The translations under genes and the position numbers were made by a program. Under the pieces are notes generated by a model. It was given only the letters and a program-made list of their open reading frames with translations. It did not search any database and was not told the DNA's origin. Shown here piece by piece: positions 5,197 to 37,449 of a DNA stretch of 64,000 nucleotides. How positions within the stretch are numbered: the stretch's first letter is position 1; each line of letters begins with the position of its first letter. The stretch spans positions 7,282-71,281 of the forward strand of contig JBAZYR010000005.1 of the NCBI GenBank assembly GCA_041659225.1, given 5' to 3'. Source of the stretch: Candidatus Staskawiczbacteria bacterium. Lineage in GTDB: Bacteria; Patescibacteriota; Minisyncoccia; Minisyncoccales; Staskawiczbacteraceae.

Positions 5197-5268
5197 AGCA
5201 GCAGAATCAGCAAACTGTCTTTTAATCGAGGCAGTTTTTTGGTAGAGTACAGTAATCAATTAAAAAAT

Positions 5269-6117: not shown

Positions 6118-6133
6118 ACTGTGGATGTAAACT

Positions 6134-6748: not shown

Positions 6749-7008
6749 CAATAATAAAAAAGAAAATATGGCCGGAGTATTTTGAACTCGTTTCATCCGG
6801 CAAAAAGAAATTCGAGTTGCGGCTCGCCGATTTCGATATTAACGAAGGAGATACTTTATTGCTTGAAGAGTGGGATCCAAAAACAAAACAATACACGGGC
6901 AGAAGCATCGAGAAGAAGGCGGGATACGTACTACGTTTTAAGCTTAATGATTTCGGACAAGAGGAAGTGATCAAAGAAAAGGGGCTAGTCGTAATCCAGT
7001 TAGATTAG
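6745..7008 (+). CDS. ASCH/DUF3850-like small PUA-fold protein
   Basis: WPEYFELVSSGKKKFELRLADFDINEGDTLLLEEWD matches the DUF3850/ASCH pattern (EYF..I..G.KtFE.R.ND..f.vGD.l.L.E). Confidence 0.45.
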   Translation: MTIIKKKIWPEYFELVSSGKKKFELRLADFDINEGDTLLLEEWDPKTKQYTGRSIEKKAGYVLRFKLNDFGQEEVIKEKGLVVIQLD

Positions 7009-7009
7009 T

Positions 7010-10345: not shown

Positions 10346-11722
10346 ATGAATAAATACACATTAGGCCTCATATCTGCTGTTTTAGTTTTTTCCTACGCAT
10401 CTGTCGCGTACGCAATGACGCCAGTTCTATCCCTTTCGAATTCGGGAAATGGCGACATGGTCCAAGTCACCGTGACCGGGGATTCTAACTCCAGCGTTAT
10501 TCTTTACTATCCTAAAACTGGTTATGGCACTCAAACCAGCTTTATCGGCACGACCAATTCAGGGGGGTATTTGACAACTACAATCAGCACCAGCTCCTTA
10601 GGCATTACCGCCGGCAGTTCCGTTCATGTAGTGGTTAACAACCAGACTTCTTATGCTGTTGTATGGCCATATGCTACCGGGTTAAACACAATTTATTTCT
10701 CGCCGACTAATCCGACTGTTAACGTCGGGCAGAGCACAACTGTATATGTTTCTGGGGGCCAAGGCAGTTATTACGTATCAACTAATTCCAATTCCAATAT
10801 TGTTCAGACTAGTTTGTCGGGCAGTACCTTGACTTTGTCCGGAATAATGAATGGCACATCGGTGATTACTGTTTGCTCTTCGGTCAATGCTTGCGGCTCT
10901 CTGACAGTCACAGTCGGCTACAGCGGAGGGAATTTATCGTTGAGCCAAACTAACATTTCATTGACGACCGGCCAGAGTGCCAGTGTTTCCATATACGGCA
11001 CCGGCAACTACTATTTTTCTGGCAACATTAACCCAAGCGTTGCTACCGTTTCAATAAGCGGAAGCAGTTTAGTAATTTATGGTGTTAACTACGGCAGCAC
11101 CAGTTTTTCTGTATGCCAAACCGGGGGGCAGTGCGTCACAGCCTATGTTACAGTGACGAATAATATAGTTACGCCGCGAACATCTTTTTTAACTTTTAGC
11201 CCGGCTAACCCAACTTTGCCGCTTGGGCAGAGCACTACTGTTTCAATTTCCGGCGATTATCCGATATATATACTTAATAACAACTATCCTTATAACTACG
11301 GTGTATATACCATTGCATACAATTCTAATTCCAGTGCTGTTCAGGCGTATATTAGCGGAAATTCTTTGGTTCTCACCGGGTCACAGCAGGGAGCTGCCGT
11401 GATTGTTGTGTGCAGCTCTTCTAGCGTTTGCGGACCAATCTCCGTTAAAGTGGGTGTCTACAACATCTACGACGATTATTCAGGATATCAATTCACAAGA
11501 TTCCTGACTCTCGGTTCAACGGGGGATGACGTTATCGCCCTTCAGGAGTTATTGACCCAAGAAGGTTACTATAGCGGCAATATTAGCGGGCGCTATGGCA
11601 GTTTAACCAGGGCTGCTGTGTTGGCCTACCAAACTGCCAACGGATTGCCGCAGACCGGTAATGTTGGGGTATCGACTCGAGATTTCCTCAACAATAACGG
11701 AGGGGTAGGTTACGGTGAATAA
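10346..11722 (+). CDS. secreted protein with four Ig-like (Big_2-like) repeats and a C-terminal peptidoglycan-binding domain
   Basis: Signal peptide. Repeated ~85-aa units ending ...SGSTLTLSG..GTSVITVCSS.NACG..TV.VG. C-terminal GDDVIALQELLTQEGYY...LTRAAVLAYQTANGLPQTG matches PG_binding_1. Confidence 0.6.
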   Translation: MNKYTLGLISAVLVFSYASVAYAMTPVLSLSNSGNGDMVQVTVTGDSNSSVILYYPKTGYGTQTSFIGTTNSGGYLTTTISTSSLGITAGSSVHVVVNNQTSYAVVWPYATGLNTIYFSPTNPTVNVGQSTTVYVSGGQGSYYVSTNSNSNIVQTSLSGSTLTLSGIMNGTSVITVCSSVNACGSLTVTVGYSGGNLSLSQTNISLTTGQSASVSIYGTGNYYFSGNINPSVATVSISGSSLVIYGVNYGSTSFSVCQTGGQCVTAYVTVTNNIVTPRTSFLTFSPANPTLPLGQSTTVSISGDYPIYILNNNYPYNYGVYTIAYNSNSSAVQAYISGNSLVLTGSQQGAAVIVVCSSSSVCGPISVKVGVYNIYDDYSGYQFTRFLTLGSTGDDVIALQELLTQEGYYSGNISGRYGSLTRAAVLAYQTANGLPQTGNVGVSTRDFLNNNGGVGYGE

Positions 11723-11724
11723 TA

Positions 11725-12732
11725 ATGGATTTAAAGCATTTCCAGGAAATATTTAATAACGAACCTTCTTATCGCTTGAAACAGGCCCAAAAGGGCCTTT
11801 TTCAGGATTTAATAAATAGCTGGAAGGAAGCAACGGTTTTTCCGTTAGATCTTAGAGAGAAGCTAGATAAAGAATGTCCGATTGCAATATCTGCCAAGAA
11901 GTTTACCGCGCAAGACCAAAAAACCGTAAAAGCTTTAATTACGTTGGACGACGGATTGAAAATAGAGGCAGTTTTGATGAAGCATGCTGACCATCGGAAC
12001 ACTGTCTGTGTTTCTTCTCAGGTTGGTTGCGCTTTGAGCTGTTCTTTTTGCGCCACCGGAAAGCTAGGATTTAAAAGGAATCTCCAGGTGTGGGAGATAG
12101 TAGAACAGGTTTTATTTTTCGCCCGTTATTTAAAAAAGGCAGGGGAGCGAGTAACAAATATTGTTTTTATGGGAATGGGCGAGCCCTTTTTGAATTACGA
12201 TAATGTTATTGGCGCGATAATGATATTAAATGCCAAGGATTGCTATAACCTAGGCGCCCGTCATTTTTCAATTTCAACAGTTGGTGTCGTCGAAGGTATT
12301 GAAAAGTTAAGCAAAGAGAAACTGCAGATTAATTTAGCGATTTCTTTGCATGCTCCCGACAACCAACTCCGGTCTAAACTAATGGGGATTAATAATAAAT
12401 ATCCTATTGAGGATGTTTTAAAATCTGTCAGTAGCTACGTTAAAAAAACTAAACGACGCGTAATGCTGGAATACATAATGATTAAAGGTGTGAATGATTC
12501 CGAAAAACACGCACACGCCCTCGCGAAGTTAGCGAGAAACCCGTTGTATTTTGTTAATCTTATCACATACAGCGAGACGGGTATGTTCAAACCTTCTGTT
12601 CCTGCGCAAATCAAAATGTTCAAGAAGATTCTTGAGCAGGAACGTGTGGCTGTAACTCAAAGGTATCGTTTCGGTGAAAATATCAAAGGCGCCTGCGGCC
12701 AGTTAGCCCTAGACGATGAAATTGACAGTTAG
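11725..12732 (+). CDS. rlmN: 23S rRNA (adenine2503-C2)-methyltransferase RlmN (radical SAM)
   Basis: CALSCSFCATGK radical-SAM CxxxCxxC in the RlmN/Cfr context. GMGEPFLNYDNV motif. 335 aa. Confidence 0.85.
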   Translation: MDLKHFQEIFNNEPSYRLKQAQKGLFQDLINSWKEATVFPLDLREKLDKECPIAISAKKFTAQDQKTVKALITLDDGLKIEAVLMKHADHRNTVCVSSQVGCALSCSFCATGKLGFKRNLQVWEIVEQVLFFARYLKKAGERVTNIVFMGMGEPFLNYDNVIGAIMILNAKDCYNLGARHFSISTVGVVEGIEKLSKEKLQINLAISLHAPDNQLRSKLMGINNKYPIEDVLKSVSSYVKKTKRRVMLEYIMIKGVNDSEKHAHALAKLARNPLYFVNLITYSETGMFKPSVPAQIKMFKKILEQERVAVTQRYRFGENIKGACGQLALDDEIDS

Positions 12733-12831
12733 TAGTTTCGTGATAGCATATAGTTGATTGGGCGTATTCCTGATCAAGGAGTGCAGTTCATTTACAAAGG
12801 AACGACGGTGCGTCGAACAAGGAGGTTGCAG

Positions 12832-13146
12832 ATGATAAAGATGTTTATTGTTGAGTATTCCAAAATTGCGAAATTTCTTCTATGGGTACTTTTTAGTCTG
12901 TTTATGGTCGCCGAAGTGATCGCTATTCTCCAGCTCGATGTTACTCTTATCTGCCGAGTAACGGCCATTGAGATTGTAATCGTTTTATGCATTTATATAA
13001 TCCGAATTATTGTTCCGGAGCAATGGGTTGCAGCGTATAACGCAAAGCGTTTCTTCCGCTTAGACGAGATAGCTCCAGAGGAGGAGTTGGGATCGCCCCG
13101 CAGCGTAACACTCGAAAAAGAAGGAGACTCTGATGATAATGATTGA
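12832..13146 (+). CDS. small membrane protein (2 TM) with acidic C-terminus
   Basis: AAGGAGG RBS 6 nt upstream of ATG 12832 (internal start of the 12754 ORF). Hydrophobic segments FLLWVLFSLFMVAEVIAIL and IEIVIVLCIYIIRIIV. 4-nt overlap with the next ORF. Confidence 0.3.
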   Translation: MIKMFIVEYSKIAKFLLWVLFSLFMVAEVIAILQLDVTLICRVTAIEIVIVLCIYIIRIIVPEQWVAAYNAKRFFRLDEIAPEEELGSPRSVTLEKEGDSDDND

Positions 13147-13369
13147 CGCGGCAAAGTATTCAGGAAGCGCAGCAACAAAAGTACAAATCTTTCTTGGTGA
13201 AGCGATCTGTCAAATAGCTAAGGAAATCTTCAGTCCACTGAATCGTTACGGGGCCCAATGTGCCTTTGCGACTCATGAGCCGACAATCGACCAACTGGTT
13301 GATAACTACGTAAAGACCGGCGCTATGTGCAGATGCATCGAACGATTTTCCCGACGGGTCCAGACATGA
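13133..13369 (+). CDS. small Cys-containing protein, paralog A of a tandem pair (unknown family)
   Basis: 78 aa. AAGGAG upstream. Shares with the downstream ORF the conserved core IFS.LNRYG.QC.....H.PT..QL.DNY..TG. Confidence 0.35.
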   Translation: MIMIDAAKYSGSAATKVQIFLGEAICQIAKEIFSPLNRYGAQCAFATHEPTIDQLVDNYVKTGAMCRCIERFSRRVQT

Positions 13370-13405
13370 TTCGAATGGCCCGCTCTCGGTCCGAAAGGGG
13401 GTCGC

Positions 13406-13651
13406 ATGTTGACTCTTCACGTAATCCTTGAGATTGGTACACAAAGCGTTGTAGCGGACGTGGAAATCTGTACCGGATCAATTAACGAAATACTCAATGA
13501 TATCTTCAGCGGCCTGAATCGCTACGGCACGCAGTGTTACTACGGGGTTCACGATCCCACATTTAACCAACTATTCGACAATTATCAGCGTACCGGCGGA
13601 CTACAGAGACGCATTTCTTCGCTACCAAGAGCGAAAGCTCGCTGTCGATAG
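13406..13651 (+). CDS. small Cys-containing protein, paralog B of the tandem pair
   Basis: 81 aa. Purine-rich AAAGGGGG upstream. Conserved core shared with 13133..13369. Confidence 0.35.
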   Translation: MLTLHVILEIGTQSVVADVEICTGSINEILNDIFSGLNRYGTQCYYGVHDPTFNQLFDNYQRTGGLQRRISSLPRAKARCR

Positions 13652-13725
13652 ATTATGCATTCGTAATGCCCCACGGCCAAGCCAAGGGGTTTTTGTTTGG
13701 ATACGAAACGTGATAGGATATATTA

Positions 13726-14412
13726 ATGAAAAAAGAAATTATTGTTATATCTCTTGGCGGCTCGATTATTATCCCGAAAACAGGTTTTGACGTAAGATTT
13801 TTGAAGTCCTTCAAGGAATTAATATTAAAATTAACAAAAAAAGGCTATAAGTTTATTATCGTCTGCGGGGGCGGCCAAACTGCACGCTCGTATCAAAAAA
13901 TAGCGCGAGAATTGAGTAATTTAACCCCGGCTGGAATTGATTGGATAGGAATATATGCGACTTGGCTTAACGCCAGCCTATTAAGGGGACTATTTAAAGA
14001 ACGGGCGCATCTGGATATAGTGAATGACCCGACTAAGAAAACGACCTGGAAAAAGCCTATTCTTATTGCCGGCGGATGGAAACCGGGGTTTTCGACAGAT
14101 TACGACGCGGTAAAATTAGCTGAACTATACGGCGTAAGAAAAGTTATTAACTTGTCGAATATTGCATATGTCTTTGACAAAAACCCCTTAGATTTTAAGG
14201 ACGCAAAAAAGATTAAGCAGACTGATTGGGCTAGTTTCCGTAAAATCGTGGGGGAGAAATGGTCTCCCGGGGCTAATCTGCCGTTTGATCCAGTCGCTAG
14301 TAAAATTGCTCAAAAACTTAAGCTAATTTTGTATTTTGTTAAAGGAACTGATTTGGTGGAGGTTGAAAAATCCATAACAGGAGAAAAATTTGACGGAACA
14401 ATCATTGCCTAG
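13726..14412 (+). CDS. amino-acid-kinase-fold protein, probable uridylate (UMP) kinase
   Basis: IVISLGGSII and IIVCGGGQTAR glycine-rich loops typical of the AAK/PyrH fold. 228 aa. Confidence 0.5.
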   Translation: MKKEIIVISLGGSIIIPKTGFDVRFLKSFKELILKLTKKGYKFIIVCGGGQTARSYQKIARELSNLTPAGIDWIGIYATWLNASLLRGLFKERAHLDIVNDPTKKTTWKKPILIAGGWKPGFSTDYDAVKLAELYGVRKVINLSNIAYVFDKNPLDFKDAKKIKQTDWASFRKIVGEKWSPGANLPFDPVASKIAQKLKLILYFVKGTDLVEVEKSITGEKFDGTIIA

Positions 14413-14416
14413 TTAC

Positions 14417-14442
14417 CTTGACGGTGTTTTTTGGTGTATAAT
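14417..14442 (+). promoter_or_regulatory. promoter with extended -10 (TTGACG ... TTTTTTGGTGTATAAT)
   Basis: TTGACG at 14417-14422. T-run plus TGGTGTATAAT ending at 14442. Gene start at 14472. Confidence 0.4.
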
Positions 14443-14471
14443 CAGTTAATAAGTAATTAGTCCGTAAATTT

Positions 14472-15083
14472 ATGAATAAAATACTTTCAATCGTGTTGGT
14501 CGTGTCAGTTTTAGCAAGCACCGGCGTTGTTTATGCTCAAACCAGCGGCACGACTGCGGCGGGAATGACCCCGGACAGCTCTTTCTATTTTTTAAAAACG
14601 TGGAAGGAGTCGATACAAACGTTTTTTACCTTCGGAGCGGAGAACAAAGCTAAGCAGTTTATGCATTTAGCTGATGTTCGGCTGGCTGAATATGAGAAAA
14701 TGCTCGAAAAAGGGAAAGCGACAATTGCTCAAAGAGTTTTAGACAAATATAATGCCCAATTGAATCGAGCAGTGACGAAGATAGAGGAAATAAAAGCAAA
14801 AGGGAACTATAGCGAGGACCTTTTAAGTAAAATTGAGGAAATAAAAGCAAAGGGCGACTACATCATCGGCGGGAAAAAGAAAAAGGAAAATGGCTGTACA
14901 AATTCTGGAGGCACCATAGTATCTGGATTCTGCTGCGCATCCGCTACTGATTTTCCAAGCAGCTGCGCTATCGGCGCCTGCGGCTGCTCGCTGGAGAATA
15001 GTCACGAGGTCAAAACCTGCGATTGTGGGCAAGACCGATGCTTTGACGGAGAAAAATGCGTTTCGTTTCAACAAGGAGGTTAA
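14472..15083 (+). CDS. secreted coiled-coil protein with Cys-rich C-terminal domain
   Basis: Signal peptide. Duplicated IEEIKAKG segment. C-terminus has 11 Cys (CTNSGG...CCAS...CAIGACGCS...CDCGQDRCFDGEKC). Confidence 0.5.
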   Translation: MNKILSIVLVVSVLASTGVVYAQTSGTTAAGMTPDSSFYFLKTWKESIQTFFTFGAENKAKQFMHLADVRLAEYEKMLEKGKATIAQRVLDKYNAQLNRAVTKIEEIKAKGNYSEDLLSKIEEIKAKGDYIIGGKKKKENGCTNSGGTIVSGFCCASATDFPSSCAIGACGCSLENSHEVKTCDCGQDRCFDGEKCVSFQQGG

Positions 15084-15102
15084 TTAATAATTAAGAAAAT
15101 TT

Positions 15103-15474
15103 ATGGAAGAAAATACGCCAAATCAGACAACCGGCGGCCAAACACCACCCGAACCGAAAAAAGAACAGCCGGCAGTTGCAAAAAAGGTTAATGTAATGGC
15201 AATTTTAGCGTACGTTATCTTTTTTATACCCTTGCTAACTGATTCTAAAAATGATCCGTTTGTTAAATACCACGTTCGACAAGGGGCATTGGTATTTTTC
15301 ATATTCATCGTTTCCTGGATACTCGGGTTTATACCCGGGCCTGGGTGGGGCCTTTCGCAGGTGATTTCCTTCTGCGGATTGATTTTAATGATTATTGGAA
15401 TTGTGAATGTTTCGCAAGGAAAAGAGGTTCCGTTGCCCTTAATCGGAAAATACGCCGACAAGATTGATATATAA
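15103..15474 (+). CDS. DUF4870-like small membrane protein
   Basis: MAILAYVIFFIPLL...DPFVKYHVRQGALVFFIFIV matches the DUF4870 pattern. 3 TM segments. Confidence 0.5.
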   Translation: MEENTPNQTTGGQTPPEPKKEQPAVAKKVNVMAILAYVIFFIPLLTDSKNDPFVKYHVRQGALVFFIFIVSWILGFIPGPGWGLSQVISFCGLILMIIGIVNVSQGKEVPLPLIGKYADKIDI

Positions 15475-15493
15475 TAAGTTATTTAAAAAATCG

Positions 15494-15535
15494 CCCTTTT
15501 GTTTCTGCAGCTGCAGAGCTTAGGGCTATTTTTTA
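15494..15535 (+). terminator. rho-independent terminator-like hairpin after the DUF4870 gene
   Basis: GCCCTTTTGTTTCTGCAGCTGCAGAGCTTAGGGC hairpin containing the CTGCAGCTGCAG palindrome, followed by TATTTTTT. Confidence 0.4.
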
Positions 15536-15541
15536 GCAATA

Positions 15542-18457
15542 ATGGCCCTAGACCTGACAAAACTAAATGAAGAGCAAAAGAAAGCTGTAGCCCATAAAAA
15601 TGGGCCTCTTTTGATTGTGGCTGGAGCAGGAACGGGAAAAACTACCGTAATAACGCAAAGGATTGCATATTTGATCGAAAAAGGTGAGGCAACGCCTGAG
15701 GAAATACTGGCGGTTACTTTTACAGATAAAGCAGCGGGTGAATTGGAAGAGCGTGTTGATAGCCTCCTGCCTTATGGATACGTTGACTTATGGGTTTCAA
15801 CTTTTCATGCGTTTTGCGAAAGGATTTTAAGGGACCACGCCTTAGATATCGGCCTGCCTGCCGACTTTAAGGTTTTGAACCAAACCGCCAGTTGGCTGCT
15901 AATGCGGCAGAATATTGATAAGCTGGAGCTTGATTATTACCGTCCGCTAGGAAATCCGACAAAGTTTTTGCAAGCATTAATTTCGCATTTCTCGCATTGC
16001 AAGGATCAGGCGATCTATCCGAAAGACTATTTAGAATATGCCGATAAACTTAAAACCCGAGACGATTCGCCCGAGGAAGAAGAGGTTGAAAGGATTAAAG
16101 AAATCGCCAATGCTTATCATGTGTATCAAAAATTACTGCTGGAAAACAGTTCCTTGGATTTCGGAGATTTGATAAACTATTGTCTGAAGCTTTTCCAGGA
16201 GAGGCCTTTGATTCTTAAAAAGTATCGGGCGAAGTTTAAACATATTCTAGTTGACGAGTTCCAGGATACGAATTGGGCCCAATATGAACTGATTAAAATT
16301 CTGGCTGAACCGAAGAATAATGTTACTGTTTGTGCGGATGACGACCAGGCGATCTACAGGTGGCGGGGGGCATCTTTTTCGAACATTATTCAGTTCAAAA
16401 AGGACTTTGCCGACGCAAAACAGATATCATTAGTTAAGAATTATAGGTCAAGCCAGAATATATTGGACCTGGCGTACAAATTTATCAAAGCCAACGATCC
16501 GGATCGGCTTGAATACGTGAATAAAATTGACAAAAAGTTGGTATCCGAGCTCGGAGGAGACGGGATAATCGAACACATACGTGCCAATTCCTTAGACCAG
16601 GAGGTTTCCCAAATAGTTAAGAAGATAAAAGAGATTTTTAAAAAAGATAAAAATGCGAACTTTAGCGACTTCGCAATATTGGTCCGGGCCAATGATGCTG
16701 CCATCCCGTTTATCAAGGCGTTAGAAAGAGAACAAATTCCTTATCAGTTTTTAGCTTCCCGCGGGCTTTATTCCAAGCCCTGTATTCTGGATATCGTTTC
16801 ATATTTTAAACTTTTGGACAACTATCACGAAAGCTCCGCGGTTTACCGGATTTTGAATCTGCCGTTTTTGAATATTTCCTATGACGATATCGCAAAACTT
16901 ACGCAGTACAGCCACAAAAGAACAATTTCGCTCTATGAAGCAATCGGAGAACTTTCCTTAGTCCCGGGAATTTCCGCAAAAGCCCAAGATAAAATATCTT
17001 TTATCATCAGCCTGATAAAGAAACATAGCCTCATGGCCAGGGAAAAATCAGTGATTGAACTGTTAGCTGCGTTTTTACAGGATTCCGGTTATCTGAAGTA
17101 TCTAACTGATAAAGAAGATGAAGAACAGATCAGTTTGCTCAACCAATTCTACAAGCGCGTTAAATCCTTTGAAGAAAGCACGATAGAACCGACCTTGAGA
17201 AACTTTGTCGAGGAAATAATTTTGGAGATTGAATCTGGCGAACAGGGAAAGCTCGAGTTTGATCCCGAGCAAGGACCGGATATGGTAAAGGTAATGACAA
17301 TCCACGGGGCAAAAGGTTTAGAATTTAAATATGTTTTCCTTGCGAATATGGTGGATAAAAGATTCCCGACAATCGCGCGCGGCGAATTAATCGATCTTCC
17401 GCCGGATTTACTAAAAGACATTAAGCCGACCGGCGACGTTCACTTACAGGAAGAAAGACGGCTTTGTTATGTCGCTATGACCCGGGCGAAAAAAGAGCTG
17501 TATTTTTCTTCAGCTCAGGATTACGGAGGAATGCGGAAGAAAAAATTGTCCAGGTTTTTAATTGAAATGGGATATGAGGATGAAGCGGACGTGAGAATCC
17601 AAAAAACCAAAGGAGAATTATTCGAACCGAGAAGTATCCTGGAAAAAAGAGAAAGCAAAAAAGAAAATGAATATCTGCCAAAACACTTTTCCTTTTCCCA
17701 GCTCACGGCATTTGAAAAGTGTCCTTTGCAGTATAAGTTTAATTTTATTCTAAAAGTACCTATAAGAGGAAAATCTGTTTTTTCTTTTGGAAAAACAATC
17801 CATGCGACGCTATATGAATTTTTGAAACAAGCTGTTGAGGGCGAGAAAATTAAACAGGAAGATCTCTTCGGTTTTAAAGAAAAAGGATCCGGCGCTCTGG
17901 GATTAGATTTGCTAAAAGAGCTCTATGAAAAAAACTGGATCGGGGAGTGGTATGATAACAAAAGCCAGAAAGATGAATATTATGCGCTCGGGCTTAGAAT
18001 TATTAAGGATTTCTATAACGAGTTTAAAAAGAATCCGCCGAAGATTTTAACAGTCAACAACACAATTGCCCTTGAAATCCCATTTAATCTGAAAATAGGG
18101 GATCAGACGGTTTATGGAATTATTGACCGAATCGATCAAACCGAGAAAGGAATTACAATTTTAGATTACAAGACCGGAAATGCAAAAGAAAGGCTTGACG
18201 CGAGTGATAAGGAGCAGTTGTTGATTTACCAAATCGCAGTTGAAGAGGTATTCAAATTAGAACCTACGGAGCTTACGTATTACTATTTAGACAAAGGAAC
18301 AAAGATGTCGTTTCTTGGCGGAGATAAAGAGAAGGAAAAACTTAAGGAAAAGATACTGCGCCAGATGGACGAGATAAAAACAAGTGATTTTAAGCCAACT
18401 CCGGGCTGGCAATGCGCATTTTGCGATTTTAAAGATATATGCGATTTTAAACAATAA
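15542..18457 (+). CDS. UvrD/PcrA-family SF1A helicase fused to a C-terminal Cas4-like PD-(D/E)XK nuclease domain (AddA-like architecture)
   Basis: Walker A VAGAGTGKTTV. DEFQDTN (Walker B/motif II). Motifs VMTIHGAKGLEF and RRLCYVAMTRAK (motifs V/VI). C-terminal nuclease domain with CPLQYKF...IDRID...LDYKTG...QLLIYQ and CAFCDFKDIC cysteines. 971 aa. Confidence 0.8.
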   Translation: MALDLTKLNEEQKKAVAHKNGPLLIVAGAGTGKTTVITQRIAYLIEKGEATPEEILAVTFTDKAAGELEERVDSLLPYGYVDLWVSTFHAFCERILRDHALDIGLPADFKVLNQTASWLLMRQNIDKLELDYYRPLGNPTKFLQALISHFSHCKDQAIYPKDYLEYADKLKTRDDSPEEEEVERIKEIANAYHVYQKLLLENSSLDFGDLINYCLKLFQERPLILKKYRAKFKHILVDEFQDTNWAQYELIKILAEPKNNVTVCADDDQAIYRWRGASFSNIIQFKKDFADAKQISLVKNYRSSQNILDLAYKFIKANDPDRLEYVNKIDKKLVSELGGDGIIEHIRANSLDQEVSQIVKKIKEIFKKDKNANFSDFAILVRANDAAIPFIKALEREQIPYQFLASRGLYSKPCILDIVSYFKLLDNYHESSAVYRILNLPFLNISYDDIAKLTQYSHKRTISLYEAIGELSLVPGISAKAQDKISFIISLIKKHSLMAREKSVIELLAAFLQDSGYLKYLTDKEDEEQISLLNQFYKRVKSFEESTIEPTLRNFVEEIILEIESGEQGKLEFDPEQGPDMVKVMTIHGAKGLEFKYVFLANMVDKRFPTIARGELIDLPPDLLKDIKPTGDVHLQEERRLCYVAMTRAKKELYFSSAQDYGGMRKKKLSRFLIEMGYEDEADVRIQKTKGELFEPRSILEKRESKKENEYLPKHFSFSQLTAFEKCPLQYKFNFILKVPIRGKSVFSFGKTIHATLYEFLKQAVEGEKIKQEDLFGFKEKGSGALGLDLLKELYEKNWIGEWYDNKSQKDEYYALGLRIIKDFYNEFKKNPPKILTVNNTIALEIPFNLKIGDQTVYGIIDRIDQTEKGITILDYKTGNAKERLDASDKEQLLIYQIAVEEVFKLEPTELTYYYLDKGTKMSFLGGDKEKEKLKEKILRQMDEIKTSDFKPTPGWQCAFCDFKDICDFKQ

Positions 18458-18609
18458 ATTATTTACGGAAAGTCATATTTATAAGATTGAAATATAATGG
18501 CGCTGGCCTACGTATTAAATGTGTATACTTGTGGTATACGCCAAAGGTCTCGCGAATAATGAGGCCTTTTGGGCTCTACTGTTAAATATTAATTCCTTTT
18601 ATTGTCTGC

Positions 18610-19194
18610 ATGCAACCAGATGATTTCAATATAATGAATATGGACGATAAGGAATTAGTCGCCCTGTCCTTGAAAGAGAAGGAAAGATATGGATACCTGA
18701 TGCAAAGATATGAGAAGAAATTATTAAAATATATTACAAGGTTTTCGGGCGTTGGCGGAGACGACGCTCAAGATATTCTGCAGGATACTTTTTTAAAGGT
18801 ATATAGAAATTTGAATGCTTACAACGGCGCATTTAGTTTTTCCTCCTGGATTTACCGGATTGCCCATAACGAAACAATCGGCCATCTGCGAAAGCTAAAA
18901 TCGCGGCCTCAGGTTGTCAATTCAGAGGATAGCAATATATTAATTGATATTTTTAAAAGCGATCCCGGGTTTTTCGCTGATATTGAAAATCAACACCTTG
19001 CTGAAAAACTTGGAGAGATTATTAATACTTTAGATAGTAAATATCGAGAGGTTATTGCTTTGGTATATCTCGAGGACAAGAGCTATAAAGAGGTATCGGA
19101 TATACTAAAAAAGCCCGTGAGCACGGTTGGGACGTTAGTTCTACGGGCGAAGAGGCAATTAAAGGAAAAGATTAAAAAAAGCAATTATTTTTAA
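18610..19194 (+). CDS. ECF-type RNA polymerase sigma factor (sigma-70 regions 2 and 4)
   Basis: Region 2 DILQDTFLKVYRNL...SWIYRIAHNETI. Region 4 YREVIALVYLEDKSYKEVSDILKKPVSTVGTLVLRAKRQLK. Confidence 0.75.
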   Translation: MQPDDFNIMNMDDKELVALSLKEKERYGYLMQRYEKKLLKYITRFSGVGGDDAQDILQDTFLKVYRNLNAYNGAFSFSSWIYRIAHNETIGHLRKLKSRPQVVNSEDSNILIDIFKSDPGFFADIENQHLAEKLGEIINTLDSKYREVIALVYLEDKSYKEVSDILKKPVSTVGTLVLRAKRQLKEKIKKSNYF

Positions 19195-19198
19195 ACAC

Positions 19199-19906
19199 AT
19201 GTCGGAAATATCTGAAAAAGTAATACAAGATATCGAAGAGAAAAAGATTCACCCTCGCCCGAGGTGGTACTTCCTGATGGGAAGATACAGCACTTTTTCC
19301 TTGTTTGTTTTCTCCATCGTTTTCGGTGCTCTTTCAGTTGCCACGATTTTATTCATGTTGTTTGATTACGATCGGGATATTTCCCAATACTTTGGCAGGG
19401 GATTATTTAAGGATATTTTAATATCAATTCCATATCTATGGATTGTCCTTTTTGTATTTTTTATTCTAAGCGCCGACTATAATCTTAGGAGAACCCCGAG
19501 GGGCTATCGGTTTGAGTTGCATAAAATTATTCTTCTTAATCTTTTTCTCTCAATTTTAGTTGGAACTGGCCTTTTCTGTTTTGGGTTCGATTCTGAAATT
19601 GACGACCTAGTTTCGCGAAATGTACCGTTTTACGAAAATCTTATCTATAACAAAGACGATATCTGGGTTTTCCCTGAAAAAGGTCTTTTGAGCGGTGAAG
19701 TGATCCAGATAATTGGGCCTGGCAGTTTTACATTGAGAGATTTCCATGGTTATGTTTGGCGCGTGAACGAAGAAGGACTTGACCCTTCTGATTTTCGATA
19801 CATTCACGAAGGCGCCAAATTAAAACTTATTGGGGAGCAAACGGGCGAAGGAATATTTGATGTTAAAATTATCTGTTCCTGGCAAGAGTGTTGCGGGGTT
19901 CGATAG
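19199..19906 (+). CDS. membrane protein, putative anti-sigma factor partner of the ECF sigma
   Basis: Begins 5 nt after the sigma gene. Multiple TM helices. No recognisable catalytic motif. Call is by position only. Confidence 0.35.
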   Translation: MSEISEKVIQDIEEKKIHPRPRWYFLMGRYSTFSLFVFSIVFGALSVATILFMLFDYDRDISQYFGRGLFKDILISIPYLWIVLFVFFILSADYNLRRTPRGYRFELHKIILLNLFLSILVGTGLFCFGFDSEIDDLVSRNVPFYENLIYNKDDIWVFPEKGLLSGEVIQIIGPGSFTLRDFHGYVWRVNEEGLDPSDFRYIHEGAKLKLIGEQTGEGIFDVKIICSWQECCGVR

Positions 19907-20159
19907 CATGGTGAAATAATAGGGGAGATGACTACGTAGTAATAAGTGAAAGGTCGAAGTCAGCATTCGCTTATTAACATAATCATCATTAAAATAGATG
20001 GCTAAATGGCTCACCAGATGCATTGCTCTCAAAGTATTCTATTAACATGTCCTTCCTATTAAGACTAGAGGAAACGCGACTCCTGTCGCAAATGAACGGA
20101 TACATGCGACAGCAACTATTCTAGGAGCAAATAAATAATAAAAATCGAACATATACAAA

Positions 20160-20190
20160 CTAACCCGCAACTGGGTTAGTTGTTTTATTT
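20160..20190 (+). terminator. rho-independent terminator (CTAACCC-GCAACT-GGGTTAG + T-run)
   Basis: Perfect 7-bp stem followed by TTGTTTTATTT. Lies 250 nt downstream of the nearest upstream CDS, so it may terminate a noncoding transcript. Confidence 0.5.
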
Positions 20191-20207
20191 ACGGAGTGGA
20201 TGCGCTC

Positions 20208-20236
20208 TTGACTTTTCACTAGTTGTGCTATACAAT
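20208..20236 (+). promoter_or_regulatory. sigma70-like promoter TTGACT-17-TACAAT upstream of the RRM protein gene
   Basis: TTGACT at 20208-20213. 17-nt spacer. TACAAT at 20231-20236. Confidence 0.5.
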
Positions 20237-20356
20237 GATTATTGTAAGTTTCTATTGAGTTCTCATTCCTTACATATTTTATTATTCTATGTAAGCCGTA
20301 AGAGAAGTTAGATAGTCGGTCGGCTTACTAATTAATAAAATAATATAAGGAAAAAT

Positions 20357-20689
20357 ATGGCAAAGAAATTATTTGTCGGTGGATTATCATATAATACTAC
20401 CGATGCTACTTTGAAAGATACTTTTTCTCAGGCTGGAACCGTTGAGTCCGCGACTATAATCATGGACAAAATGACCGGCCGCTCAAAAGGATTTGGATTT
20501 GTTGAAATGTCTACTGAGGAAGAAGCTCAGAAAGCCACTGAAATGTTCAATGGCAAAGACATCGACGGAAGAAACGTCACTGTCAACGAAGCAAAACCTT
20601 TGGAAGCTAGACCTCCAAGAACTGGGGGAGGCTTCAACCGAGGAGGCGGAAGCCGAGGATTCGGTGGAGACAGAGGAAGTCGCTGGTAG
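20357..20689 (+). CDS. RRM-domain RNA-binding protein with RGG-rich C-terminal tail
   Basis: RNP2 KLFVGGLSY and RNP1 KGFGFVEM motifs. C-terminal GGGFNRGGGSRGFGGDRGSRW. Confidence 0.75.
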   Translation: MAKKLFVGGLSYNTTDATLKDTFSQAGTVESATIIMDKMTGRSKGFGFVEMSTEEEAQKATEMFNGKDIDGRNVTVNEAKPLEARPPRTGGGFNRGGGSRGFGGDRGSRW

Positions 20690-20700
20690 AAAGTAATGAG

Positions 20701-20726
20701 AAAATCCCTTAACAGGGATTTTTTCA
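20701..20726 (+). terminator. rho-independent terminator (AAATCCCT-TAAC-AGGGATTT + T-run)
   Basis: Hairpin immediately after the RRM gene stop, followed by TTTTTC. Confidence 0.55.
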
Positions 20727-20729
20727 TGT

Positions 20730-20984
20730 ATGCGTGGTATAATAAAGGATATTAATAATGTTAAATATATGAGCATATTAAACAAAATACTCTTTACTAT
20801 ACTTTTACTACTTTTCGCGGTTGCGTTTTTCCTATACAAACAGTATGTGTTTTCCTTCTTAACGTTGGTCGTCATTCTTGTCTTCTCCAAATGGGATCAA
20901 ATGAAGAAGCTGATTGCTGGAAACGGACGCATTGAGATGCAGTTGCAGAACAAGAAGGAGGAAGAGAACAAAGAGGTAAAGTAG
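20730..20984 (+). CDS. small membrane protein (2 TM), unknown function
   Basis: 84 aa. Hydrophobic ILFTILLLLFAVAFFLY and FLTLVVILVF. Followed by a strong terminator. Confidence 0.4.
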   Translation: MRGIIKDINNVKYMSILNKILFTILLLLFAVAFFLYKQYVFSFLTLVVILVFSKWDQMKKLIAGNGRIEMQLQNKKEEENKEVK

Positions 20985-20995
20985 CTAACTATCAG

Positions 20996-21029
20996 TTCAC
21001 CCCGTAACGTTGTTACGGGGTTTTGTTTG
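20996..21029 (+). terminator. rho-independent terminator (CACCCCGTAAC-GTT-GTTACGGGG + TTTTGTTTG)
   Basis: Perfect 9-10 bp stem followed by a T-run. Confidence 0.6.
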
Positions 21030-21032
21030 CCC

Positions 21033-21061
21033 TTGACGTGCTTTTGATAGTATGATATAAT
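21033..21061 (+). promoter_or_regulatory. sigma70-like promoter TTGACG-17-TATAAT upstream of the secretin-like gene
   Basis: TTGACG at 21033-21038. 17-nt spacer. TATAAT at 21056-21061. AGGAG RBS 8 nt before ATG 21122. Confidence 0.55.
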
Positions 21062-21121
21062 ATATTTGTTGACTTCGCGTGGAGTCACGATAGTGTGTTC
21101 GTTGACATAGGAGTCTGTAAG

Positions 21122-22531
21122 ATGAAGCGAGGATGTTTTTACTACGTATCGGCCTTCATTGTTGCTTTCGCCATCGTCGGTTCGGCGATGGCTCAGCAAT
21201 CGACAAGCGCCCCTGCGGGCGCCGTGGCCAGCGATGGCAAAGTCGTTATCGCCGGTCAGCCGGGTGATTACAACATCATCTCGAGTGACGGTCAGTTAAC
21301 GATGCAGAGTTACGAAGTAACCGGGGTGTCTGTGGAAAGTAAGAGCACGCTGTACAAAGCGTTCCATAAGCTCCTGTCGAAAGACGGGCGTGGCGGGAGT
21401 GCCGAGGTGGCGCCGCTCACTCGGAACGGTAAGGAAATCATTCTTCTCATCGTAGCCGCGACACCCGAGATGCAACGTTCAATCGCGAAAACCGTTGAGC
21501 GGATCAACTCGGGAACCGTCGGCGCTTTCTGCTACACCCCAAAAAATGTGGTGTTCATTCCGAAGTATCGGTCGGCCGAGTCAATCGCTGCGGCTTTACG
21601 CGTGGAGATAACCAACATTGGTGTTCTCTACGTTGACCCGATTCTGAACGCGATAACGATCGAGGATGACGCCACCTACGTGGACTGGCTGGTCAATTAC
21701 GCACAAGAGTTTGACTCGCCACCTCCGCAGATTACGGCCATACTGCGTCTTGTCGCCATTGACAAGAACAATGACAGCAGTGTCGGAACGGATTGGGGTG
21801 CTCTGCTTGATGGACTTCCACCGTCGATTTCGCTAAGTATCGGCGGTGAACGTCAGATCTTATCGCGCTCGGGCGAAGTAAGCGTCGCCAACGGTGATCC
21901 GAGCCTTGCCCTGACAGGTTCGAAGCAAAGGCTTTCGCACCTGCCCATAACGAGTTTTTCTGCGGCGGTTAACGAGATTTCGCCGCAGGCGGTAGGAGCC
22001 TTCTTCAGTTATCTGGAAACAAAGGGCGTGTGTCGGATTCTCAACACCGCCGACATTAATGTGGTCAACGGCTCGCCGACGGTCGTAAGCACGGAAGTGA
22101 GTATGCCCGTCACCGCCACAGTCTCAAGCGAGACCGGCGGCAAGCTTCGCCAGGAAGTTTCGGTTTTAGAAGGTGTTAAGATTACGATCAGCGGAAGTTT
22201 GGCCACAATCGGCCATCGCCTGAATGTTCAGGCGAGCAGTACATCGGTGGTGAGTTATACTCGCACCGGCCTTCCGCTCATCGCGACGAGTACTCTTGAC
22301 ACCGCCGTCCAGCTGCCGCGCAACCGCACAATCACCTTATCGGGGTTGTCGCGGCAGAAGGAGGTCACGGTAACACACAAGCCTCCGGTACTCGGAGACT
22401 TGGATGTCTTGAACCTTTTCTCAAAAAAGGTCACCGAAACCAGGGAATGGAAACTGTATATTTGCATCACGGTGGTTGACCCGCCGGTTGCAACTCCAGC
22501 GACCACGAACCCTTCGGTTTCGGTCAATTGA
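21122..22531 (+). CDS. secretin-family protein (GspD/PilQ-like), short form, in a GC-elevated gene
   Basis: Signal peptide MKRGCFYYVSAFIVAFAIVGSAMAQQ. Secretin N-domain-like PQITAILRLVAID. C-terminal secretin motif GLSRQKEVTVTHKPPVLGDLDVLNLFSKK (cf. vPxLGdIPvLGxLFr). Visibly higher GC than the flanks. Confidence 0.55.
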   Translation: MKRGCFYYVSAFIVAFAIVGSAMAQQSTSAPAGAVASDGKVVIAGQPGDYNIISSDGQLTMQSYEVTGVSVESKSTLYKAFHKLLSKDGRGGSAEVAPLTRNGKEIILLIVAATPEMQRSIAKTVERINSGTVGAFCYTPKNVVFIPKYRSAESIAAALRVEITNIGVLYVDPILNAITIEDDATYVDWLVNYAQEFDSPPPQITAILRLVAIDKNNDSSVGTDWGALLDGLPPSISLSIGGERQILSRSGEVSVANGDPSLALTGSKQRLSHLPITSFSAAVNEISPQAVGAFFSYLETKGVCRILNTADINVVNGSPTVVSTEVSMPVTATVSSETGGKLRQEVSVLEGVKITISGSLATIGHRLNVQASSTSVVSYTRTGLPLIATSTLDTAVQLPRNRTITLSGLSRQKEVTVTHKPPVLGDLDVLNLFSKKVTETREWKLYICITVVDPPVATPATTNPSVSVN

Positions 22532-22591
22532 CCGTTTCCTCGAACACAAACAACCAAGCCCGGTGGCTATCATGCTATCGGGCTCTTTCTT

Positions 22592-22620
22592 TTGACGTAA
22601 ACAGATTTCTGGTGTATAAT
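22592..22620 (+). promoter_or_regulatory. sigma70-like promoter TTGACG-17-TATAAT with TG extension, upstream of typA
   Basis: TTGACG at 22592-22597. Spacer ends in TGGTG. TATAAT at 22615-22620. ATG at 22632. Confidence 0.55.
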
Positions 22621-22631
22621 AAGGTTTTGTT

Positions 22632-24458
22632 ATGAATAAAATACGAAACATCGCAATAATCGCCCACGTTGACCACGGAAAAACCACTTTGGTGGACGCT
22701 CTTTTGCGTCAGTCAAAAACCGCAATGAGCAAAGACCGGGCAAATCAGGACTGTATTATGGACAGTAACGAGATAGAAAGAGAGCGGGGGATTACCATTT
22801 TTTCTAAAAACGCATCCGTTTACTATAACGATACTAAGATAAATATAATCGATACTCCGGGCCATGCAGATTTTGGCGGAGAAGTTGAACGGGTTTTGAA
22901 TATGGCTGACGGCTGTCTGCTTTTGGTTGACGCAAAAGAAGGACCAATGCCCCAAACAAGATTTGTTTTGAAAAAGGCGTTGGAAATGGGTCACAAGATT
23001 ATTGTTGTGATTAATAAAATTGATAAGGATGGAGCCCGTCCCGAATATGCCTTAGAAGCAACAATGGAACTATTTTTAGAATTAGGCGGGCATGATCAAA
23101 CATTGAGTTTTCCGGTGATTTACGCGTCCGGAAGAGAGGGAAAAGCTGGTAAAGTGGCAAATATTAGCAAAATGGAGGATATTTTGCCGATATTCGAAGA
23201 AATTATCCAGCACATACCTTCGCCGATAGGAGATTCAAAAAAGCCTTTGCAAATTTTAGTTACTTCCATAGCTGGAGACGACTTTAAAGGAAGAATTGCT
23301 ATCGGCAGAGTTTACAACGGAGTTGTAAAAGCTAATCAGGAGGTGATGCATATAAACAGAGCGGGGGAGCAGACAAAGTGCAAATTAGTTTCTCTTATGA
23401 CTTTTGCCGGACTTGGTAAAATTGAAAGCGCTGAAGTTTCGGCCGGTGACATTGTTGCCATCGCCGGGATACCCGATGTAACGATTGGGGAAACAATAAC
23501 TGATCCGTTGGATCCGCAAGCTTTACCTTTGATTAATATTGAAGAGCCAACCGTAAAAATGACCTTCATGGTTAACGATTCTCCTTTTGCCGGCAAGGAG
23601 GGGGAATACCCAACCTCCAGGCAGATACGGGAAAGGTTACACAAAGAATTGGAAACCGATGTTGCTTTAAGGGTTGACGATACGGATGACGGAAAATGGA
23701 TTGTGTCAGGGAGAGGGGAATTGCACCTTGCCATTCTAATCGAAAGAATGCGCCGGGAAGGTTATGAGTTCCAGGTCTCCAGGCCTCAAGTGATTACGCG
23801 TGAAATTAACGGCAAGCAAATGACGCCTTTTGAAAAGGTCTTTATTGAAGTCCCTGAGAAATATCATGGGACGGTGATACAGAAATTGGGAGCCAGAAAA
23901 GGTGAAATGATTGAGATGAGAAACGTGGATAGTACAGTATTTTTAGAATTTGTGATTCCTACGAGAGGGCTTTTGGGATACAGAAGCGAATTTCTAACTG
24001 ACGCAAAGGGTTTAGGAATAATGAATACAGCTTTTTATCAATATCAAACAGATCCTGGAAATTGGAAAGAAAGAGCCCAAGGATCTTTGATTTCTCACGA
24101 AACTGGGCCTACTAATCTTTACGGTTTGAGAAACGTGCAGGATAGGGGAGTATTATTTTTCGGCCCAGCGGTGTTGGTTTACGAAGGCCAGGTTGTGGGT
24201 CAGAATTCACGTCCTAATGATATCCGAGTAAATGTTTGCAAGGAAAAACAGCTGTCGAATATGAGGTCAAAAGGAGAAGGGGTATCTGTACATTTTAACA
24301 CTCCAAAGACCATGGGGCTGGAGGACGCTTTGGAATATATTGGAGACGATGAATTAGTTGAAGTTACGCCGAAGAATGTACGAATAAGAAAAGTATACTT
24401 AGACGATAATGATCAGAGAAGGGCTGATAGAAAGGAGAGATCGGGAAACGCCGGATAA
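22632..24458 (+). CDS. typA: translational GTPase TypA/BipA
   Basis: [17 protein letters not shown]1 motif, DTPGHADF and NKIDK motifs. 608 aa EF-G-like architecture without the G' insert. Confidence 0.9.
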
Positions 24459-33545: not shown

Positions 33546-34292
33546 ATCCTGAGAGACTTTCGAAAGTCGCTTTACGCTGTCGCGTTCAGCGATTTTTTGT
33601 TAATATATATAGCAATCTCTTGACAGGTTTTACAATCCATGCTATCGTATTACTATACTTTACGATTATGCCGAGGATAGAAATTGCTGACTTTCCAATG
33701 AACTACTCGGGATAAATTCACGATTAGTTCTTTGGATGGTTGGCAGGCTCGCTTTTAAAGGTGAGCTGTCCGCTATCCTACAGGCCGCGTCCGACAGTTG
33801 GTGGGCGAGCGAACATAGACTCGAGGGTTTCCAAAAAATTAGGGCAATGCTAGTTGAGTCGCCGACGGCTTTCCACGTCGACGTGATACTCTCGCGTTGT
33901 GGATCTTCGGTGCAACGGGTGCCGAAACCTAGGCAGCGGTCAAGGGCCTACCCGAAAATCTTGACTGGGAACCCACCCACCAACTGTCACTTGTTCATTG
34001 AAAACAAAAGTAGAAACAGAACTTCGCGCTATCGTTCGCGTGAACGAAAGACGAAGTTTTCTTACTGAGGAGTACACTTTATGCGCACCCTTCGCCACCC
34101 GGTCATGTTTGCGATTATCTTCTGTGCGCACCGCCGGCACCGCCACGGTCAGCCCTGACCACGTCGGCACGGGCCCGCTAGCGCCCGAATCAAGATAGTC
34201 CTATGGATGGGCTGATTCGGGTTCTGGCGAAAGACCCAAGAGGAGGAACACATATGTTCCCCAAGGACCCTCCGTTCTACTAAAGACAAACG

Positions 34293-34342
34293 AGGGCAGG
34301 AACGTCTCATGGCCGAGGACGCATTCCTGCCCCTCTTTTTTT
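34293..34342 (+). terminator. rho-independent terminator (GGGCAGGAA...TTCCTGCCC + TCTTTTTTT)
   Basis: 9-bp perfect stem arms (GGGCAGGAA / TTCCTGCCC) followed by a T7 run. Confidence 0.55.
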
Positions 34343-34354
34343 ACATAAATATCC

Positions 34355-34382
34355 TTGACAAATCTCAGTATTTTATTATAAT
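34355..34382 (+). promoter_or_regulatory. sigma70-like promoter TTGACA-16-TATAAT for the nfeD-flotillin operon
   Basis: TTGACA at 34355-34360. TATAAT at 34377-34382. Confidence 0.5.
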
Positions 34383-34515
34383 AAGCACACTAAAGGCAAG
34401 CGGACTTGCCCGAAGAGTTCGTTGACAAGTTGGAAGGAGAGTCGAACAAATGAAATAAAATTCGCATATCGTATCGGTTTGTAGACGCAGGCCATGAAAC
34501 GAAAGGAGACAGGCC

Positions 34516-35046
34516 ATGTTGGTGTTCTTTACGGTTGCTTTGATCGCATTTTTGTACGTGGTGCTGGGATTTATTCTCGGCCACGCCCATGACGTCGGCC
34601 ATGACATTCTAAGTCATGACGCGGATCATGAGGGTGCCGATGGCCACATGATCAGTATTTTCTCGACGCGAGTAATCGCCACCTTTATGATGGCTTTTGG
34701 AGCTGCTGGAGGAGTTTTCAAGTTTTACAATTTCAACTATCCTCTTTCATGCCTTGGTGGCATCGGCGCCGGCATAGTCGTGTCTATTCCCATTTATTTC
34801 TTACTGAATTTCATCGCGAAACAACAATCGAATTCTTTAGTGTTGACATCCTCTTTAGTCGGACTTTCTGGAGTTACGGAAACGGCAATGGAGGGGAATA
34901 TCATGGGCGAGGTTGCGGTGTTCGCGCTGGGCCGGCGTAACATTTACCAAGCCGTCTCTCGCTTGGGTAAGCCCATCGCCAAAGGATCGGCCGTGCGCGT
35001 GGTGAGAACCATGGGAAGTGACTTGGTTGTGGAAGTTCTGGCCTGA
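34516..35046 (+). CDS. NfeD-like membrane protein (short form, C-terminal OB-fold)
   Basis: Three N-terminal TM helices. C-terminal LGKPIAKGSAVRVVRTMGSDLVVEVLA matches the NfeD beta-domain. Sits upstream of an SPFH gene. Confidence 0.55.
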   Translation: MLVFFTVALIAFLYVVLGFILGHAHDVGHDILSHDADHEGADGHMISIFSTRVIATFMMAFGAAGGVFKFYNFNYPLSCLGGIGAGIVVSIPIYFLLNFIAKQQSNSLVLTSSLVGLSGVTETAMEGNIMGEVAVFALGRRNIYQAVSRLGKPIAKGSAVRVVRTMGSDLVVEVLA

Positions 35047-35084
35047 GTCGCGGAATCGCGACCGAAAGATAAGGAGAAGAGATT

Positions 35085-36752: not shown

Positions 36753-36820
36753 GCTGAGTTGGGGAGGCGAGGAGACAATCTTCTCGCCTCCCTCTCTCGG
36801 TATAAAGAAGGAGAGATGGC

Positions 36821-37390: not shown

Positions 37391-37449
37391 AAATAACTTT
37401 CAAACCCCAAAGGACTCTAACCTGCGGGGTCTTCTTTTATACCAAATCA

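Follow-up and report, generated by a model that had tools for sequence, protein, structure and literature searches.

The 64,000-nucleotide stretch of DNA analysed here, called the window throughout, comes from Candidatus Staskawiczbacteria, a reduced bacterium of the Candidate Phyla Radiation (CPR, Patescibacteria), and at 21122-22531 on its + strand it carries a gene whose product resembles a secretin. A secretin is taken as the mark of a bacterium with two membranes, and the absence of secretins has repeatedly been cited in favor of a single-membrane envelope in CPR. What, then, is such a gene doing in this genome? Both profile and fold show the protein to be a true secretin, nearest to the PilQ/GspD branch and outside every named subfamily; and it is not a one-off, being a member of a small and rare clade so far seen in CPR alone. 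As for its role, our preferred and still tentative reading, to which we give a probability of about 0.45, is that it is a gated channel passing a type IV pilus through an outer layer of the envelope. A secretin is a known kind of protein; what is new is the setting in a CPR host, the architecture, and the clade.

The identification as a secretin, first made in a sequence-only reading of this DNA, is borne out by the Pfam Secretin model (PF00263), which matches residues 298-450 at E = 3.2e-13 with a score of 50.1 bits, above the gathering cut-off of 27.5, and also by the predicted fold. An AlphaFold2 (AF2) model made from a 4-sequence alignment had a predicted local distance difference test score (pLDDT) of 53.8, and one made from a 112-sequence alignment, obtained from an exhaustive search, reached 82.4. 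A Foldseek search with the model returned InvG, GspD, PilQ, pIV and RcpA, all at probability 1, with E-values down to 1e-14. A profile of the family described below matches ExeD at 2e-27 and PilQ at 1e-24, spanning the full secretin domain, and it also matches RcpA (5e-14) and InvG (8e-14); the cognate genes of the Tad, type III secretion, MshL and HofQ systems do not lie nearby. Every named subfamily model in NCBIfam (PilQ, GspD, SctC, MshL, HofQ) scores far under its cut-off, for example SctC with 37 bits against 238 and MshL with 34 against 250.

Comparison with individual secretins shows where the likeness ends. PilQ of type IVa pili (TIGR02515; Neisseria 4av2, Vibrio competence PilQ 6w6m) appears to share the N3-like domain that precedes the secretin core, and it is both the best NCBIfam match and the best single-sequence PDB match of the window protein, but the score is 47.8 bits against a cut-off of 284.35. 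PilQ proteins have about 570-900 residues, whereas the window protein has 469 and lacks AMIN and N0 domains; and, unlike PilQ, its gene lies outside a pilMNOPQ operon, its anchoring motif is degenerate, and its host belongs to a group reported to have no outer membrane. GspD of type II secretion systems (T2SS; TIGR02517; Aeromonas ExeD 6i1x) is the best match of the family profile (the 2e-27 given above; Foldseek E ~1e-13), but its model gives 28 bits against 351.35, and, in contrast to GspD, the window protein has no N0-N2 array, S-domain or pilotin, having only two N-domains and a 17-residue tail; no T2SS (gsp) genes were found near the secretin. HofQ/ComE (NF010083), which serves a DNA-uptake pilus, is also short (about 410 residues), but it has an N0 and a KH-like domain and a diderm setting, and the window protein reaches 32 bits against its cut-off of 554.

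The host itself is well placed. The secretin gene and the adjacent TypA gene are deposited on a Staskawiczbacteria contig of up to 785 kb; TypA, from the same source, has its closest relatives in Patescibacteria and Parcubacteria; and the window fits a CPR genome, with genes nearly all on one strand, GC of ~0.42, and ATP synthase and hrcA-grpE-dnaK-dnaJ operons. PilQ or GspD has been looked for in CPR and not found, which was read as agreeing with a single-membrane envelope (PMC6744442, PMC9166423, PMC4508563, PMC6851277, PMC7143001), and cryogenic transmission electron microscopy (cryo-TEM) of Parcubacteria showed no outer membrane, as summarised by PMC7137472. Our literature search found no report of a secretin in any CPR genome. 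The earlier expectations, that the host would prove to be a reduced bacterium and that a secretin would be out of place in it, were therefore both correct.

Relatives of the window protein are few. A word-indexed search of 5.8 billion proteins found four only, 46-54% identical, and a scan of one genome per species across 185,579 species found one, in a Patescibacteria metagenome-assembled genome. In JGI metagenomes three loci only were found, using a 6-sequence alignment, the 15-sequence family alignment being too diverse for locus scanning. An exhaustive HMMER search of 1.84 billion representatives gave 19 hits below 1e-30, mostly of 400-490 residues, beyond which the scores fall to 115 bits or less and the hits are ordinary secretins. 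The clusters hold one to four members each, and therefore the gene is rare. All members that bear organism names are CPR of the Parcubacteria type: Staskawiczbacteria (twice), Falkowbacteria, Buchananbacteria and 'Patescibacteria group' (twice). The two Staskawiczbacteria members are the window protein and that of locus L006, which was assigned through its CTP synthase.

The clade was defined by a length of 400-490 residues, a signal peptide, an xPGxY hairpin, an N-domain with DGxGG and ATxxMQ, an N3-like domain, a secretin core, and an HMMER E-value below 1e-30. The window protein was among the sequences used to build the profile, so that it belongs to the clade by construction, and it is P0006-P0021 that count as independent members. 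The family alignment of 15 members shows conservation of all these elements, DGxGG and ATxxMQ both lying in domain 1, and it is in their N-terminal half that the extended members match best. In at least 15 lineages, now only 25-55% identical, open reading frames (ORFs) remain intact and structural residues conserved, which implies long-term purifying selection. The closest pair of genes is 55% identical at the protein level, and therefore synonymous sites are saturated for an estimate of the ratio of nonsynonymous to synonymous substitution rates. One member, at L008 243-1546, is split by a frameshift into ORFs of 358 and 76 residues, and is either a pseudogene or a sequencing error.

The protein is predicted to consist of a series of elements. 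Residues 1-24 (21122-21193) form a putative Sec signal peptide, MKRGCFYYVSAFIVAFAIVGSAMA, cleaved between AMA and QQ and with no lipobox; read from the sequence, it has a basic n-region, a hydrophobic core and an AxA site, the model places a helix at residues 6-18, and most family members have similar N-termini. It is followed at residues 25-57 (21194-21292) by a low-confidence linker rich in Ser, Thr and Ala (pLDDT <50 at residues 21-40) and then a QPGDYN motif, in which P47 never varies within the core clade, and G48 and Y50 never vary there or anywhere in the 15-member alignment. N-terminal domain 1 (residues about 58-130, 21293-21511) is the best-conserved part across the extended family, and from its order of elements, beta-alpha-beta-beta-alpha, appears to be of the N1 or ring-building type. 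Next is an N3-like (Secretin_N) domain (residues about 141-200, 21542-21721), modelled with the same beta-alpha-beta-beta-alpha order at pLDDT 93-98. The Pfam model for it (PF03958) matches residues 144-203 with 25.5 bits, just under its cut-off of 28.2. No N0 or AMIN domain was found by Pfam or in the model.

The beta-rich secretin core covers residues 203-452 (21728-22477), as supported by PF00263, the profile alignment and the model, in which pLDDT is mostly >90 from residue 300. Within it, a hairpin is tipped by a hydrophilic insertion (residues 244-277, 21851-21952; pLDDT <50), some 25-30 residues long, that is specific to the core clade: the window protein, P0002-4, P0006 and P0007 have it, and the extended members lack it. 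From its position in the model, this hairpin is probably the beta-lip. Cys304 and Cys448 are also invariant in the six core-clade sequences, unlike in the extended members. Residues 421-436 (22382-22429) carry a degenerate version of the amphipathic-helical-loop motif, PPVLGDLDVLNLFSKK, with a helix at 428-433 in the model. It aligns to VPLLGDIPVLGxLF of PilQ and ExeD but has lost the second Pro and the Gly and has one residue deleted. Its mean Kyte-Doolittle hydrophobicity is 0.23, and core-clade values run from -0.34 to 0.23, compared with 0.68-1.16 for the canonical motifs of ExeD, PilQ and the extended member P0013; extended members keep the canonical anchoring motif GIPxLxxIPxIGxLF. The protein ends in a Pro/Thr-rich tail (residues 453-469, 22478-22528), which has low model confidence and is not conserved, and a pilotin-binding S-domain was found in no alignment. 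Thus, of the features initially claimed for the protein, the signal peptide stands as read, the secretin-N-like segment is present as a modelled fold while falling short of the Pfam cut-off, and the C-terminal secretin motif is recognizable by alignment in a degenerate form.

How might such a protein work? We propose that it would be exported by Sec and would assemble into the usual gated ring of 12-15 subunits. The ring would sit in the outermost layer of the envelope, which may be a protein-rich coat resembling an S-layer, or local lipid patches, rather than a classical outer membrane of lipopolysaccharide (LPS), and it would let through a type IV pilus or material moved by the pilus. The proposal draws on the similarity to PilQ and GspD as the nearest class, and on the fact that the type IV pilus is the sole type IV filament machine known in CPR (PMC6744442, PMC4508563); a type IV pilus operon is within the Parcubacteria core genome (PMC4508563).

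In further support of this proposal, a distant relative, P0172 (460 residues, with the same layout of N-domains and secretin core, 22% identity, E = 8e-21), heads a co-directional array of secretin, GT4 glycosyltransferase, pilB, pilC, x, pilin, pilin, x, pilM, pilN and pilO (L018 10001-20693). The PilB of this array scores 568 bits against Patescibacteria PilB and 451 bits against Geobacter PilB, which is suggestive of a CPR origin and not decisive. Finally, an analogy is provided by Thermotoga, whose PilQ resides in the proteinaceous toga (PMC10160955), and by Deinococcus DR_0774 (8co1), which is matched by the window protein in fold and by the family profile: in both, a secretin ring is placed in an outer layer that is not of the classical LPS kind. 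The analogy is a functional one, given that Thermotoga and Deinococcus have a second lipid-containing layer, Bam-type machinery and large multi-domain secretins, whereas Staskawiczbacteria is not known to have such a layer.

The family members have varied, housekeeping surroundings that differ from locus to locus. The window secretin has an RRM protein and an 84-residue membrane protein on one side and TypA on the other. P0002 (L002) lies between ftsA and ftsZ; P0004 (L006) is near rplI, pyrG and rpmA and adjoins GC-rich genes that include a ParB_N-like gene; P0007 (L010) is between tgt and uvrB-uvrA-uvrC; P0012 (L020) is immediately upstream of uvrA...uvrC; P0013 (L012) follows PKD-domain proteins; and P0003 (L015) lies last in a GC-rich island of ~5 kb. 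This island (3976-8698, GC 0.52-0.60 against 0.43-0.46) also encodes three unannotated membrane or secreted proteins, one with four transmembrane segments, one with a single segment, and one of 405 residues with a signal peptide.

An all-against-all blastp of the surrounding 4 kb on either side at 8 loci gave no ORF common to the core-clade neighborhoods at E < 1e-4. A phmmer comparison of selected neighbors gave a single shared pair, a 428-residue multi-pass membrane protein encoded 15 nt upstream of the secretin at L012 (8699-9985) and L020 (2609-3895), homologous at E = 8e-38. It has no Pfam match, is also enriched in G and C at third codon positions (GC3), and is not found beside core-clade members; it is a candidate dedicated partner in these two extended-family loci. 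L010 (10001-17775) and L020 (3911-10149) have the secretin in one and the same slot, ahead of the uvr cluster, with identities of 71% for UvrA, 48% for UvrC and 33% for the secretins. That the slot is shared despite 33% secretin identity argues for an inherited position in those lineages, and suggests an inherited or preferred location.

Several observations weigh against the proposed role in pilus passage. Among the ~55 ORFs scanned in the window there are no pilus, type II secretion or outer-membrane (Bam, Lpt, Lol) genes. The core-clade neighborhoods share no gene and show no pilus linkage, and therefore the link to pili rests on one distant relative, P0172. The clade is very rare, and in nearly every CPR lineage the pili function with no secretin, so that the secretin is no general requirement. 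The anchoring motif of the core clade is eroded and less hydrophobic, which would be odd for a ring embedded in a membrane; one member is split by the frameshift; and the named subfamily models all score far below their cut-offs. A type IV pilus context, which had been raised as one possibility for this gene, thus receives indirect support from the array headed by P0172, and does not extend to linkage in the core clade.

The gene appears to have its own expression signals. A promoter-like site of sigma-70 type, TTGACG-17-TATAAT with an extended -10 TG, lies at 21033-21061 on the + strand, and as a pattern match it agrees with the consensus at 11 of 12 positions. Ten sites in the window match at 11/12 or better, all of them intergenic, on the + strand and upstream of genes (the - strand has 0), and the secretin site is the only one of the ten with the extended -10 TG. 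The site is therefore in the genome's own style and credible as a promoter of the gene's own, which the sequence-only reading had taken to be a strong one. A putative Shine-Dalgarno sequence, GGAG, is at 21110-21113, 8 nt before the ATG. A terminator-like hairpin (20999-21021; 10-bp stem with 6 GC pairs, then a T-run; again a pattern match) closes the upstream 84-residue gene and sets the secretin unit apart, and a second (22557-22584; 11-bp stem with 7 GC pairs, then a T-run), on the same strand, would end it, directly before the TypA promoter at 22592-22620. By these putative signals of native style, the gene is a stand-alone transcription unit. An alternative GTG start at 21095 would give 478 residues; the 469-residue product from the ATG, followed by a stop, is an exact match to the deposited protein WC845_02690, 'hypothetical protein [Candidatus Staskawiczbacteria bacterium]', as the length first read implies. 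The JGI pipeline labels the same secretin a type II secretion component.

The base composition of the gene requires a separate explanation. Its GC content is 0.549, against 0.42 in the rest of the window, and the rise is confined to about 21140-22590, which is essentially the coding sequence. GC3 is 0.634 compared with 0.415 +/- 0.027 in 14 neighboring genes (z = 8.1), with G/C-ending codons favored for nearly every amino acid; the contrast in composition first noted between this gene and its neighbors is thus real. Amino-acid composition was rejected as the cause, the excess being at third positions for almost all amino acids, and high expression is unlikely to be the cause, since the DnaK, ATP synthase and TypA genes of the window have GC3 values of 0.39-0.43. 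The excess recurs in other members: secretin and neighbors have GC3 of 0.70 and 0.50 at L010 (z 8.5), 0.69 and 0.36 at L018 (z 2.7), 0.61 and 0.45 at L012 (z 2.1), and 0.56 and 0.27-0.35 at L020. The L018 contig has 0.38 GC and its secretin gene alone 0.54, and the secretins of L014, L007 and L008 also exceed their flanks; no excess was found in L002 or in the GC-rich L019.

Horizontal acquisition, as offered at the outset to account for the gene, is too simple as the reason for its GC-richness: an excess found in members that are 22-55% identical, together with a shared inherited position, cannot be explained by one recent transfer. To all appearances, the GC-rich codon usage has either long been characteristic of the family or resulted from repeated replacement. 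The family may have been replaced repeatedly from a pool of about 55% GC, or the gene may be kept GC-rich by biased gene conversion, as an often-recombining surface gene, or by codon selection. No direct or inverted repeats of the kind that bound transposons flank the secretin gene. The nearest relatives of TypA (84-86% identity) have already lost synteny around it, and therefore the polarity of insertion cannot be read by comparison with an empty site.

The same composition could be taken to mean that the secretin is a passenger or a decaying relic, acquired horizontally, transient, and with no working role in a cell that has no outer membrane. The foreign-looking codon usage (z = 8.1) and extreme rarity of the family would fit, as would the eroded anchoring motif, the frameshifted member at L008, and the position of the L015 and L006 secretins within larger GC-rich islands. 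We nevertheless consider it unlikely, given the intact ORFs, signal peptides and conserved structural residues in the diverged lineages described above. A relic would also not be expected to have a near-consensus promoter match of native type, a Shine-Dalgarno sequence and a terminator, or to keep the same slot upstream of uvr in two lineages and a conserved two-gene cassette in one subclade.

A quite different use, which must be rated as rather improbable, would be against another cell: an epibiotic CPR cell would export the secretin, which would insert itself into the outer membrane of the host bacterium to make a wide gated hole for a pilus or for uptake of nutrients or DNA. Some secretins, for example PulD, multimerise and insert into liposomes without Bam machinery. 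The sporadic, accessory-like distribution, variable context and atypical composition are typical of host-interaction genes, the core-clade gene has no partner genes, and the clade-specific insertion is at a hairpin that presumably faces outward; the producer cell, moreover, is reported to have no outer membrane (PMC7137472). The secretin gene is not linked to any gene for a toxin, a delivery system or an adhesin. In the core clade the amphipathic anchoring motif has become weaker rather than stronger, and the best-conserved part of the protein is its N-terminal domains, which in all known secretins face the machinery of the producer. We know of no precedent for a secretin acting in trans.

It could be argued more simply that these Parcubacteria truly have a second membrane and that the protein is an ordinary outer-membrane secretin, a divergent PilQ or GspD. 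For most CPR no description of the cell wall exists (PMC8871954), an outer membrane was reported in an OD1 endosymbiont (Gong et al. 2014, cited in PMC4508563), contrary to the imaging mentioned above, and the extended members of the family keep the canonical anchoring motif. All the same, CPR-wide surveys found neither outer-membrane machinery nor secretins and cryo-TEM no outer membrane (PMC6744442, PMC7137472), the 64 kb contain no Bam, Lpt or Lol genes, the closest relatives identified through TypA do not carry the gene, and a sporadic distribution is a misfit for a trait that defines the envelope. Our judgement is that this is decidedly unlikely.

Less probable by far is an export secretin of the pIV type left by a filamentous prophage: no relative was found in 2.9 million viral contigs and only generic pIV matches in a viral structure library, none of about 10 genomic contexts contains phage genes, and the sequence relation to f1 pIV (7ofh; 2e-13), which begins with an N0 domain, is weaker than that to GspD and PilQ (1e-27 to 1e-24). 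An assembly or binning artefact, in which a GC-rich gene from another organism was joined to the contig, might be suspected from the GC jump that coincides with the gene, but is effectively refuted by an independent assembly (Logan, SRR6484324) that matches window positions 12315-22685 at 99.99% with one mismatch and spans both gene junctions, which are therefore real, as well as by the host-like flanking signals and by the same pattern in other CPR contigs from unrelated samples.

It is worth adding some observations on other parts of the window. An RRM-type RNA-binding protein with a Gly/Arg-rich tail (20357-20689) is encoded two genes upstream of the secretin, and a similar RRM gene occurs in the Patescibacteria locus L017. 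A gene for a sigma factor of the extracytoplasmic function (ECF) type (18610-19194) is followed after 5 nt by one for a 235-residue three-pass membrane protein with no Pfam match (to 19906); they resemble a sigma/anti-sigma pair, likewise located two genes upstream. At 10346-11722 there is a 458-residue secreted protein with Ser/Thr/Gly-rich repeats and a C-terminal peptidoglycan-binding domain, which matches PF13629, 'pilus formation protein N-terminal', with 28.4 bits against a cut-off of 23; this domain is otherwise found on Tad-type secretins, and the protein could be an envelope partner.

A second and larger GC-rich island (33550-37450, GC 0.50-0.59) lies between an FKBP gene and hrcA-grpE-dnaK-dnaJ. 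It has a promoter match of 12/12 to consensus at 34355-34382, and contains genes for an NfeD-like protein (34516-35046), an SPFH/flotillin protein (35085-36752, GC3 0.725) and an unannotated protein of 189 residues (36821-37390). No convincing ORF could be made out in its first ~800 bp (33.55-34.35 kb), which are likewise GC-rich, and an Rfam scan of the GC-rich non-coding region at 33.3-34.6 kb gave no match at E <= 1. At 48139-49401 there is a full-length serpin (Pfam, 398 bits); bacteria seldom have serpins, and this gene too may have been acquired. The strand bias is extreme over the whole window (1-64000), with a cumulative GC skew that rises monotonically, and a Fic/HTH gene at 62414-63346 is among the very few genes on the - strand.

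A conserved clade of secretins so far known only from CPR would mean that certain Parcubacteria possess an outer layer, hitherto unrecognised, in which a ring can be held, or that a secretin works in a layer that is not lipid, or that a secretin is used against another cell. Each of these outcomes would have a bearing on the way in which ultra-small epibionts are joined to their hosts, and on how far secretins can serve as markers of the envelope when early bacterial evolution is reconstructed. Apart from this, the GC3 excess seen across the family in AT-rich genomes is a signal that calls for an explanation of its own. That the secretin works without an outer membrane of its own, whether as a pore acting in trans on a host or as a pilus gate through a proteinaceous layer of a single-membrane cell, we regard as doubtful; if it does so, secretins would no longer be reliable markers of diderm bacteria.

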